Source of the DNA: an uncultured Pseudomonadales bacterium
GTDB taxonomy: Bacteria; Patescibacteriota; Microgenomatia; UBA1400; PJMF01
Direction of reading: 5' to 3'
NCBI GenBank assembly: GCA_964620965.1
Contig: CAZUHV010000003.1
Span: 162,093 to 226,092, forward strand
Length of the DNA: 64,000 bases
This document shows positions 19,695-22,159 of the stretch, one piece after another (positions within the stretch are counted from its first letter, which is position 1; every line of letters starts with the position of its first letter). Made by a program: the position numbers and the translations under genes. The notes under the pieces were generated by a model. It made no database searches. It saw only the letters and a list, made by a program, of their open reading frames with translations, and was not told the origin of the DNA.

Positions 19695-19851
19695 TAAGAA
19701 ATAACAAGCTATAGTTTTCTTATGCAAAGGAGCACTCAGTTCAGATAGGTGGATGAAAAAGTAAAGATGTTTTGCACAGGTAAAAATCAGAGATTTTCTT
19801 AAACCAAAGTAGTAATAAAAGTGTGCTAGGAAGCAAACAGGAGGTGTTTGT

Positions 19852-20031
19852 ATGAAATTAGAAGAAACTTCTGCCCCCTACAGCAGAGAAACCCTTGAAA
19901 GGTTAATGAACGTGCTTAAGCAATATGAGGTTCTTCCTTGGCTTAATCCAGTCACTAATGCCATTAGCATTAAGGATTTTAATTTCGCCCAACATCGTCC
20001 CTTTACTCAAGGTCCCTGTCGAGAGGAATAA
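19852..20031 (+). CDS. Small ORF (59 aa) with a consensus SD
   Basis: CAGGAGGTG lies 6 nt upstream of the ATG; ORF MKLEETSAPYSRETLERLMNVLKQYEVLPWLNP...; sits 1 codon below the track cutoff. Confidence 0.4.
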   Translation: MKLEETSAPYSRETLERLMNVLKQYEVLPWLNPVTNAISIKDFNFAQHRPFTQGPCREE

Positions 20032-20047
20032 TGCTCAAATTGTTTTA

Positions 20048-20389
20048 TGGTATAATCCTCGAGATGGATAAAAACCTCACAACCACTACCACCACAACTA
20101 CAATCCCTGTTTAGGGTGTGGCTGATAGTGTTTGAAAACGAATCAGGAAGCCCCCTAAACAGGGGGCTTTTTTCTTTCATGCCCTGAATTTTTGAATAAA
20201 ATTCAGCTGGCATGAAATATGCAAAGCGCAGGACTCGATCTTTTTTGTTTAAAAAAGTCGCAGGTACGAAAGATGCAAAGCATGAAACAGATATACAAGA
20301 TAAAAAGTGGGAAGCAAAAAGTACATAAGAAACAAAATCGCTTCCCACAGACAAGAACAAACTATTATAATAAGGAAAAGAAAGACAAT
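20048..20389 (+). promoter_or_regulatory. thrS promoter and structured leader with terminator/antiterminator (attenuator)
   Basis: Extended -10 TGGTATAAT (20048-20056). CCCTGTTTAGGG (20104-20115) is exactly complementary to the 3' side of the 5' stem, the loop and the 5' side of the 3' stem of the terminator GCCCCCTAAACAGGGGGC-TTTTTT (20149-20172). A second hairpin lies at 20177-20213. Confidence 0.5.
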
Positions 20390-22159
20390 ATGAACGAACA
20401 ACATAATCAAGCAGAACTAGAAAAACTACGACATTCTGCAGCACATTTACTTGCGGCTGCAGTTTTAGAGTTATATCCAGAGGCTAAACTAACGATCGGG
20501 CCAGCAACAGAAGATGGGTTTTATTACGATTTTGATTTTGGGGATATTCAAATCAGCGATAAAGATTTTCAAGCAATAGAAAAAAAGATGAGGTTTCTTA
20601 GTAAAAGTTGGGGAAGTTTTGAGCGCCAAGAAATCTCTTCTCAAGAAGCATTAGAGCGTTACAAAGATAACGAATATAAAACAGAACTGGTTACAGACAT
20701 AGTTCAAGCTGGTGAACAGATTTCACTCTATAAATCTGGCAATTTTACTGATCTTTGTAGAGGTGGTCACATAGAAAAGCCAGCTGTGAGCTTGAAATAC
20801 TTTAAGTTGCTTTCAGTTGCAGGTGCCTACTGGCGTGGCAGTGAAGAAAATAAAATGCTGACTCGTATTTATGGAACAGCGTTTTTTAGTCAAGAAGAAC
20901 TTGATGCTTTTATCAAAATGAAAGAGGAAGCAAAAAACAGAGATCATAGAAAACTCGGTAAAGAGCTTGGTCTTTTTGTCTTTTCTGATACAGTCGGTAA
21001 AGGATTACCTCTATGGACAGCAAAGGGGGCAACGGTTCGTCGAGAACTTGAACGTTTTGTAACTGATGAAGAAATCAGAAGAGGTTACCAACATGTTATG
21101 ACTCCGGATATTGCTAATCTAGACCTCTACAAAAAATCTGGTCACTATCCGTATTACAAAGAAAGCATGTACGCGCCAATTCAAATTGAAGAAGAGGAAT
21201 ATATGCTTCGTCCAATGACTTGCCCACATCACTTTGAGTTATATAACGCACATCCACACTCATATAGGGAGCTTCCAATGCGTATTGCAGAACTCGCAAA
21301 GTTGTATCGTTTTGAGCGTTCTGGAGAGCTTTCTGGATTGATTAGGGTTCGAAGTTTTTGTTTAGCAGATTCACATATTGTTTGTATGAAATCTCAAGCA
21401 AAAGATGAGATTAACGGAGTTTTGGATTTAATTGAGTTTATGGGTAAAACATTTGGTTTAGAACCAGGCAAAGATCTTTCATACCGCTTATCTCTTGGAG
21501 ACAGAGCTGATGAAAAGAAATATTACAAAGATGACGCGTCATGGGATTTTGCAGAAAATGTTTTGCGTGAAGTTTTGGAAGAACGTGGTTCAAAATTTGT
21601 TGAAGCAGAACAAGAAGCTGCGTTTTATGGTCCAAAAATTGACGTTCAAATGAGAAATGTAAATGGCAAAGAAGACACTGCTTTTACTGTTCAGTATGAT
21701 TTTGTGATGCCAAAACGTTTTGATCTTAAGTATGTTAACGAACATGGTGAAGTTGAACAGCCAATCGTGATTCATCGTTCTTCTATTGGCGCAATCGAAA
21801 GAACACTCGCATTTTTAATAGAAAAATTTGCTGGAAAATTCCCGGTTTGGCTTGCTCCAACCCAAGTGAAAATCTTGCCTATATCAGATAAATTTAATGC
21901 TTATGCACAAGAACTCTATTCAAAGATGGTTCGGGAAAACATTAGGGTAGAAGTTGATGACAGATCAGAGCGTTTGCAAGCAAAAATTCGTGACGCGCAA
22001 ATGGAAAAAGTTCCATATATGCTAGTTGTTGGTGAAAAAGAAGCTGCAGAAGCTACCGTTACTGTTCGAAAACGAGATGGCAAAAACCAAGATGTTCAAC
22101 GAGTTGACGAGTTTATTGAATCAGTTAAGCAACAGATACGAGAGAGAAGCATAGAATAA
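20390..22159 (+). CDS. thrS: Threonyl-tRNA synthetase lacking the N-terminal TGS domain
   Basis: HSAAHLLAAAV editing-domain motif, class II catalytic core, C-terminal anticodon-binding domain. The real start is MNEQHN with AAGGAA upstream; the first 57 codons of the track ORF are leader. Confidence 0.9.
   Translation: MNEQHNQAELEKLRHSAAHLLAAAVLELYPEAKLTIGPATEDGFYYDFDFGDIQISDKDFQAIEKKMRFLSKSWGSFERQEISSQEALERYKDNEYKTELVTDIVQAGEQISLYKSGNFTDLCRGGHIEKPAVSLKYFKLLSVAGAYWRGSEENKMLTRIYGTAFFSQEELDAFIKMKEEAKNRDHRKLGKELGLFVFSDTVGKGLPLWTAKGATVRRELERFVTDEEIRRGYQHVMTPDIANLDLYKKSGHYPYYKESMYAPIQIEEEEYMLRPMTCPHHFELYNAHPHSYRELPMRIAELAKLYRFERSGELSGLIRVRSFCLADSHIVCMKSQAKDEINGVLDLIEFMGKTFGLEPGKDLSYRLSLGDRADEKKYYKDDASWDFAENVLREVLEERGSKFVEAEQEAAFYGPKIDVQMRNVNGKEDTAFTVQYDFVMPKRFDLKYVNEHGEVEQPIVIHRSSIGAIERTLAFLIEKFAGKFPVWLAPTQVKILPISDKFNAYAQELYSKMVRENIRVEVDDRSERLQAKIRDAQMEKVPYMLVVGEKEAAEATVTVRKRDGKNQDVQRVDEFIESVKQQIRERSIE

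Follow-up and report, generated by a model that had tools for sequence, protein, structure and literature searches.

Attenuation of transcription by a translated leader peptide is a classical form of gene control, exemplified by the trp, thr, his and pheST leaders of Escherichia coli, and the E. coli thrS gene, which encodes threonyl-tRNA synthetase (ThrRS), is autoregulated by way of tRNA-like operator hairpins. In this report we describe the leader of a thrS gene found in a 64-kb stretch of contig CAZUHV010000003.1 (the whole of this stretch is referred to as the window, and positions are numbered from its first letter). The leader holds a short open reading frame (ORF) rich in threonine codons, followed by an antiterminator and an intrinsic terminator that share sequence and exclude one another, and we consider it very probable that it is a ribosome-mediated leader-peptide transcription attenuator that tunes thrS transcription to the supply of charged tRNA-Thr.

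The arrangement resembles that of the E. coli thr leader (thrL, RF00506) in its Thr-codon ORF, in the predicted pairing of the codon tract with a segment downstream, in its mutually exclusive antiterminator and terminator, and in the read-through proposed for conditions of Thr-tRNA limitation. However, E. coli thrL controls the thrABC biosynthetic genes, contains mixed Thr and Ile codons and has a start led by a Shine-Dalgarno (SD) sequence, whereas the leader in the window precedes a synthetase gene, is probably leaderless and carries eight uninterrupted Thr codons. Attenuation of a synthetase gene, with sensing of cognate tRNA charging, would be shared with E. coli pheST (pheM) and with the hisS leaders of bacilli, where His leader peptides occur at hisS paralogues (PMC2965389); these leaders concern another amino acid, another gene and other phyla, and have no sequence similarity to the window leader. 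RNA-seq of Streptomyces lividans TK24 has revealed leaderless leader ORFs before genes that include thrS, leuS, trpS and alaS, the ThrL peptide having two Thr codons and its leader no clear intrinsic terminator (PMC8079986), and polycysteine leaderless upstream ORFs are present in mycobacteria (bioRxiv 10.1101/834739). The predicted position of the window ORF, at the 5' end of the transcript and without an SD sequence, recalls these actinobacterial leader peptides. The window leader differs from S. lividans thrL in its eight Thr codons, its canonical terminator, its covarying antiterminator and its occurrence in the Patescibacteria. The T-box (RF00230) serves the same purpose, namely more synthetase at low charging, by the same antiterminator/terminator output, yet it senses uncharged tRNA through RNA-RNA contacts; the window leader is without Stem I, specifier and T-box sequence, and its sensor would be the translating ribosome.

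How genes are regulated in the candidate phyla radiation is a nearly unexplored subject, since most members are uncultivated, and a search of the literature found no report of leader-peptide attenuation for Patescibacteria.

RESULTS

A threonine-codon reading frame in the thrS leader

The leader elements and the gene that they precede are as follows.

20048..20056, + strand: promoter P1, extended -10 element TGGTATAAT, read from the sequence
20064..20114, + strand: leader ORF (thrL-like) encoding MDKNLTTTTTTTTIPV, 16 codons plus TAG, from translation
20079..20102, + strand: sensing tract, or attenuator segment 1, eight consecutive Thr codons (ACA ACC ACT ACC ACC ACA ACT ACA)
20105..20116, + strand: antiterminator 5' arm CCCTGTTTAGGG, the reverse complement at 12 of 12 positions of CCCTAAACAGGG (20153-20164), with 36 nt between the arms
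20117..20134, + strand: segment 2, G/U-rich TGTGGCTGATAGTGTTTG, pairing with Thr codons 20080-20096 in minimum-free-energy folds of the free RNA
20145..20177, + strand: intrinsic terminator, stem 20145-20156/20161-20172 (12 pairs) followed by the U-tract TTTTTTCTTT, from terminator scan and folds
20390..22159, + strand: thrS, encoding a 589-aa threonyl-tRNA synthetase with the Pfam domains SAD, class II core and anticodon-binding

The initial annotation of this stretch had drawn attention to an extended -10, a 12-nt complementary pair, a terminator and a second hairpin, all of which are present within 1 nt of where it placed them. It gave thrS a leader of about 340 nt; the ATG lies at 20390, one base earlier than the annotation implied. 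What it described as a CA-rich unstructured tract proved to be eight in-frame ACN codons within an ATG...TAG mini-ORF; the letters quoted for the tract contain one small slip, the sequence reading CCTCACAACCACTACC...

The leader ORF is the sole case of a run of at least six identical residues among short ORFs in all six frames of the window, and its Thr codons are read by both tRNA-Thr species that the window encodes (GGT and TGT anticodons). Its stop codon, TAG at 20112-20114, falls inside the antiterminator arm. Transcription from P1 is predicted to start at 20063/20064, that is, at the leader ATG or 1 nt before it. The leader ORF is probably leaderless, because its ATG stands 7 nt past the -10 hexamer and no SD sequence precedes it.

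For comparison we collected 80 thrS loci from genomes (562 kb) and 80 from metagenomes, which with the window make 161 sequences. In the closest relative, locus L001, a 20-nt block GTGGTATAATCCTCGAGATG is identical to that of the window, and the DNA upstream of the block is unrelated. In 17 of the 20 homologous leaders an in-frame start codon follows the end of a strong -10 at a distance of 4-12 nt (mostly 6-9 nt); displaced control windows showed this in 4, 4 and 1 of 20. No SD-like motif was found in 19 of the 20.

Thr-run reading frames recur upstream of thrS

Short Thr-run ORFs (four to eight consecutive Thr codons, three in one locus) precede thrS in some 20 loci of related Patescibacteria, and these loci contain almost none in other places. 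When ORFs of 6-40 codons in any frame or on either strand were scanned across the 562 kb of genome loci, 15 had at least four consecutive Thr codons, 13 of them directly upstream of thrS on the same strand; with the threshold raised to at least five, all 11 were so placed. The metagenome loci add six distinct Thr leaders. A scan of the window and the 160 loci for runs of any residue, with a terminator no more than 75 nt after the stop codon, returned 24 ORFs, among which were 17 Thr runs, every one upstream of thrS. The encoded peptides (for example MHKKLIATTTTTTIPV in L001, MQYAKLTTTTTTTIPA in L004, MLITTTTTTIPAGE in L007, MNAIRTTTTTTS in L030 and MKQQFAATTTTTAL in L025) are alike in little except the Thr run, and the third codon positions are free to vary, a combination that is the signature of selection on codon identity.

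Some loci depart from the simple arrangement. In L118 two Thr-run ORFs (64-129 and 355-435) stand in tandem before one thrS with a terminator after each, and may form a double attenuator. In L002 (ThrRS 78% identical) the region 2735-2872 has the same leader architecture (a peptide ending in NPV before the stop codon, then CCCCGTTTAGGGTGTGG and a terminator stem), with the Thr run decayed to TTILTM and a weak U-tract; this leader may be a degenerating attenuator. In seven loci (L008, L030, L044, L099, L111, L118 and L149) the gap of about 240-470 nt between attenuator and thrS contains an open reading frame, often beginning directly at the end of the U-tract.

Antiterminator and terminator are mutually exclusive and covary

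The terminator has the core GCCCCCT-AAAC-AGGGGGC at 20150-20167, extended by flanking A-U pairs, and a computed strength of -15.9 kcal/mol together with its U-tract. The 3' arm of the antiterminator, 20153-20164, lies within it, so that the two structures cannot form together. When the region that follows the Thr run is paired with the terminator's 5' half (the 2:3 duplex), the energy in the window is -16.1 kcal/mol, with z = -3.8 and p of about 0.002 against 500 dinucleotide shuffles, and the folding of the whole leader has z = -4.1. The initial annotation's suggestion of an attenuator before thrS, with a mutually exclusive antiterminator/terminator pair, is supported.

Homologous leaders, whose comparison the initial annotation had in view, carry an antiterminator that covaries. 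An alignment of all 20 leaders made with MAFFT (A1) was misregistered in the terminator and unusable for pair counts, and two subgroups (A3 and A4) were used instead. In A3, which aligns the window with six relatives (MAFFT, unbiased), the RNAalifold consensus is the 12-bp antiterminator itself, with compensatory double changes at 6 of the 12 pairs. Ninety per cent of cells are paired (76% in shuffles) and the covariation score is 0.464 (0.207 in shuffles); none of 500 shuffles reached either value, and slid controls gave 44-63% pairing. The terminator helix is 87.5% paired in A3, with 4 of 7 pairs changed on both sides, and 4 of 6 pairs are compensatory in the second subgroup.

Predicted effect of ribosome position

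A ribosome covers about 12-13 nt 3' of its A-site codon. With this usual footprint, a ribosome that waits for Thr-tRNA at Thr1-Thr5 does not reach 20105, and the arm stays accessible; one at the UAG covers 20105-20116 entirely. The distance from the stop codon to the terminator is 23-38 nt in all 20 leaders measured, and 23-36 nt in the 14 that were folded.

Fourteen leaders were folded with the ribosome footprint masked at different positions. In untranslated RNA, pairing of segments 1 and 2 (1:2) together with the terminator was obtained for the window and for 10 of the 13 other leaders, 11 in total; in such folds segment 2, with a small CCCT/AGGG apical hairpin, is predicted to sequester the antiterminator arm and thus to act as an anti-antiterminator. 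Masking of the Thr run gave the antiterminator in all 14 when the terminator 3' arm was omitted. At full length it displaced the terminator in about nine of the 14 folds, that of the window included (antiterminator state, -30.8 kcal/mol), and did not do so in L001, L008, L023, L025 and L030. A ribosome placed at the stop codon gave the terminator alone in 14 of 14. Since the 1:2 helix is out of register in A3, folding of individual sequences and shuffle tests were relied on for it; over 20 leaders, dinucleotide shuffles of segment 2 gave combined Z-scores of -8.3 (1:2) and -9.1 (2:3).

The region between the terminator and thrS

Two further features lie between the attenuator and the gene.

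20175..20217, + strand: second hairpin, 9+9 bp, directly 3' of the terminator, from folds and inverted repeats
20342..20371, + strand: putative promoter P2, TTCCCA-18 nt-TATAAT, from a promoter scan (10/12 match), 18 nt before the thrS ATG

The second hairpin is not followed by a U-tract. It is kept in L001, where the inner stem has changed in a compensatory way (CTGAATTTT/AAAATTCAG against CTCTATTTTC/GAAAATGGAG), and no other relative with a leader has it. As the window holds a single copy, the idea of a repeated or mobile element was rejected; guesses at its role are an RNase III site, a pause site and a stability element.

A strong -10 within 60 nt upstream of thrS was found in 12 of 20 leader-bearing loci, where shuffles predict 1.3, and a tandem arrangement in which a constitutive P2 accompanies a P1 gated by the attenuator seems to us a reasonable reading of this pattern. 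In eight relatives (L008, L013, L025, L026, L030, L044, L075 and L118) a distance of 6-10 nt separates the end of the -10 box, often TGnTAnnnT, from the thrS ATG. Within the window segment 20206-20350, about 110 nt of which are lacking in L001, there are a direct repeat (20206-20227 and 20260-20281, 82% identical) and a third hairpin, of 9 bp (20307-20315/20340-20348), with a 3' arm that overlaps the -35 of the putative P2. The spacer may thus have undergone a local duplication or insertion.

The frame that runs into thrS from the ATG at 20219 was considered as an N-terminal extension of ThrRS and ruled out: it has an in-frame stop in L001, and the homologues align from residues 1-10. The hairpins thus lie outside any conserved extension of the protein, and with the covariation described above neither of the two findings that the initial annotation had named as contrary to its reading was made. 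For annotation purposes thrS should start at 20390, and the leader of about 330 nt should bear a small ORF and an attenuator feature.

Phe-run leaders upstream of pheS

The residue-run scan of the 161 sequences also returned five Phe-run ORFs followed by a terminator. Three are upstream of pheS, as identified with Pfam (L049 5027-5095, L095 4387-4431 and L016 5959-6027); a fourth is at 4373-4441 of L084, a locus that ends before the downstream gene can be identified, and the fifth is in L153. MKFFFFSGFFGNIS and MTIKKTFVFFFFASQSGEPLGV are examples of the peptides. The pheS product of L016 bears an N-terminal AlaRS-like domain.

Genomic setting and relatives of thrS

The window is AT-rich (about 36% GC). 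The SAD domain of its ThrRS occupies residues 111-161; Pfam found no match to the TGS domain in the 589 aa, and homologues align from residue 1, this ThrRS being the short form typical of the clade. A search of 185,579 species genomes (genome_contigs) confirmed 493 thrS relatives, with a top identity of 86%. The closest are all metagenome-assembled genomes (MAGs) of Patescibacteria, of the Microgenomates type (Levybacteria, Gottesmanbacteria and 'PATE' bins). Many close relatives (L001, L004, L005, L007-L009 and others) are titled 'uncultured Pseudomonadales' or 'Gammaproteobacteria' MAGs; the taxonomy of these records is probably wrong, as their ThrRS groups with Patescibacteria bins. A scan of metagenomes for nearer relatives found none above 65% identity, and the fine-scale covariation therefore rests on the genome_contigs loci.

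An antisense ORF (20007-20444, 145 aa) without a Pfam match lies across the structured leader and was for these two reasons treated as spurious. The genes for ribosomal proteins L10 (17876-18385, - strand) and L1 (24983-25759, - strand) are about 6.6 kb apart, which is unusual for the normally contiguous rplKAJL cluster; the intervening stretch holds an unannotated 217-aa ORF, a 59-codon ORF, a P-type cation ATPase of 880 aa and, on the opposite strand, the thrS unit.

DISCUSSION

The ORF, the helices and their conservation lead us to propose the following course of events. RNA polymerase would start at P1, at or 1 nt before the AUG at 20064, and a ribosome would load on the leaderless 16-codon ORF and trail the polymerase. 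When Thr-tRNA is plentiful, the ribosome would pass the eight Thr codons, reach the UAG at 20112-20114 and cover the arm at 20105-20116, upon which the terminator at 20145-20172 would fold and transcription would stop in the U-tract. When Thr-tRNA is scarce, through low threonine or low ThrRS, the ribosome would stall on the first Thr codons (about Thr1-Thr5) with its front edge before 20105, in a position that would also block pairing of the Thr codons with 20117-20134; the freed arm CCCUGUUUAGGG would pair with the emerging CCCUAAACAGGG, no terminator would form, and the polymerase would read through about 217 nt into thrS. Were the ORF left untranslated, the Thr codons would pair with 20117-20134, the arm would be held in the apical hairpin and the terminator would again form. 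A second promoter just before thrS probably gives basal expression independent of the attenuator. Of this scheme, computation shows the ORF, the helices with their mutual exclusivity, conservation and covariation, and the exclusive link to thrS; the point at which transcription starts, translation of the leader ORF, ribosome-polymerase coupling, stalling and the effect on regulation are inferred. The initial annotation had entertained a novel attenuation mechanism, but with a Thr-codon leader ORF as its sensor the proposed scheme is the classical one of the E. coli thr, his and pheST leaders.

Several points weigh against this reading or limit its reach. The combined Z-scores overstate significance, several leaders being mutually related. 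For the 1:2 helix, the window taken by itself gives a non-significant z of -1.1, the register is not maintained across A3 (52% of cells paired), and base composition, ACN codons facing a G/U-rich segment, accounts for part of the pairing; an unconserved register is to be expected of a repetitive ACN tract, but the helix is still left less firmly supported than the others. The probable second promoter in most loci would mean that the attenuator governs just part of thrS transcription. In about eight relatives thrS may itself be leaderless from P2, and translation of thrS from read-through transcripts would there be questionable. Finally, the 217-nt spacer with its conserved hairpin is not accounted for by the attenuator model.

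The alternative that survives best, though we regard it as improbable, is that the mini-ORF and its terminator are a self-contained unit, a gene for a Thr-rich peptide or a small RNA, with thrS transcribed from P2 only and without regulation in cis. The strong -10 elements past the terminator in 12 of 20 loci and the strength of the terminator with its U-tract would both suit such a unit, and released attenuator RNAs can, on the account given of rnTrpL, act in trans elsewhere (PMC6614838). However, the Thr run is all of the peptide that is conserved, and without exception the unit points the same way as thrS and lies directly before it (or before a small ORF and thrS), whatever lies further upstream. 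A covarying antiterminator would also be purposeless unless termination were conditional, and the Phe version at pheS fits a logic of cognate amino acids.

It is very unlikely that the leader is instead bound by ThrRS or another RNA-binding protein, for instance at the second hairpin, with the Thr codons incidental. The operator mimicry of E. coli thrS is a precedent for autoregulation of this kind, and the hairpin at 20175-20217, kept in L001 with compensatory changes, is without an assigned role. Yet inspection of folds revealed no 7-nt anticodon-like NGU loop among the hairpins of 20173-20389, and in folds of 20140-20395 and the inverted repeats the loops (UGAAU, GUUU and one of 24 nt) include none that is anticodon-like, as an E. 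coli-type thrS operator would have. The second hairpin is missing from relatives other than L001, whereas the ORF and the antiterminator-terminator pair are common to them, and binding of a protein would leave the Thr run, the reading frame and the placement of the stop codon unexplained.

Less likely still is a divergent T-box, in which uncharged tRNA-Thr would bind the leader and stabilize the antiterminator. The initial annotation had called the leader T-box-like, thrS is a typical T-box target, and AGGGTGTGGCTGA is faintly like the T-box sequence. T-box-like elements do occur in this setting. The argS gene of the window (about 295-2129, + strand) has a divergent T-box leader in 37-237 with a terminator GCCCCTTTTGC...GCAAAAGGGGCTTTTTT; positions 37-193 match RF00230 at 35.3 bits and E=1.7e-6, below the gathering score of 93, and contain AGGGTGGTACCGC. 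An Rfam search at gathering thresholds of 19 relatives with a T-box-like GGGTGGAACC motif returned no T-box, and in permissive mode there were four sub-threshold matches before thrS in other Patescibacteria (L055, L079, L035 and L058; 36-40 bits). A tandem of T-box and leader peptide, suggested by a T-box-like motif upstream of the leader ORFs of L099 and L149, was considered and dropped, as this motif was unconfirmed by Rfam and appears to be a long terminator hairpin. Against a T-box at thrS in the window, the permissive search of 19800-20500, in the mode that detected the argS leader, gave no match to RF00230 (Stem I with specifier loop, T-box sequence AGGGUGGNACCGCG, antiterminator bulge) at E<=10. 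The roughly 40 nt from promoter to antiterminator arm leave no room for a Stem I with specifier loop and are taken up by the ORF, there is no UGGN bulge context, and AGGGTGTGG has another explanation, being complementary to the Thr codons and belonging to the antiterminator arm. That an ORF and an inverted repeat stand by chance next to what is simply the terminator of the 59-codon gene upstream (19852-20031), which has no terminator of its own before 20145, has a negligible probability, as the feature recurs in about 20 loci with varied upstream genes, Thr runs of at least five occur solely upstream of thrS in 562 kb, the pairing covaries and the shuffle statistics are contrary.

The leader-peptide attenuator that we favour is not a recognized member of an Rfam family. 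At gathering thresholds, a search of the whole window reported tRNAs only. The best near-matches in 19800-20500, all below threshold, were Phe_leader (32 bits, driven mainly by the terminator) and Thr_leader (RF00506; 29.1 bits, E=0.0024 in a 701-nt search), both of them families of leader peptides and each with a gathering score of 55. The leader works like the RF00506 family without being a detectable member of it, and is an analogue rather than a detectable homologue. As judged from these matches, this genome appears to control argS with a T-box and thrS with a leader peptide, and T-box and leader peptide appear to alternate at thrS across lineages of the clade. Somewhat short of an even chance, in our estimation, is the broader possibility that leaderless leader-peptide attenuators are a clade-wide form of synthetase control in Patescibacteria (thrS and pheS so far), standing in some lineages in the place that T-boxes take in others, and accompanied by a constitutive second promoter.

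As the mechanism is a textbook one, the conceptual surprise is modest; what is new is an unusually clean case in an understudied clade. The thrS leader is a clear and comparatively supported example of classical attenuation in this group, at an essential synthetase gene and not at a biosynthetic operon. It would imply that transcription and translation are coupled in these organisms and that a regulatory ORF is translated by leaderless initiation. If clade-wide control of this kind is real, reduced episymbionts that scavenge amino acids would depend on tight coupling between a ribosome that starts leaderless and RNA polymerase, and the attenuators would provide a marker, readable from sequence, of the amino acids that limit growth in uncultivated lineages.

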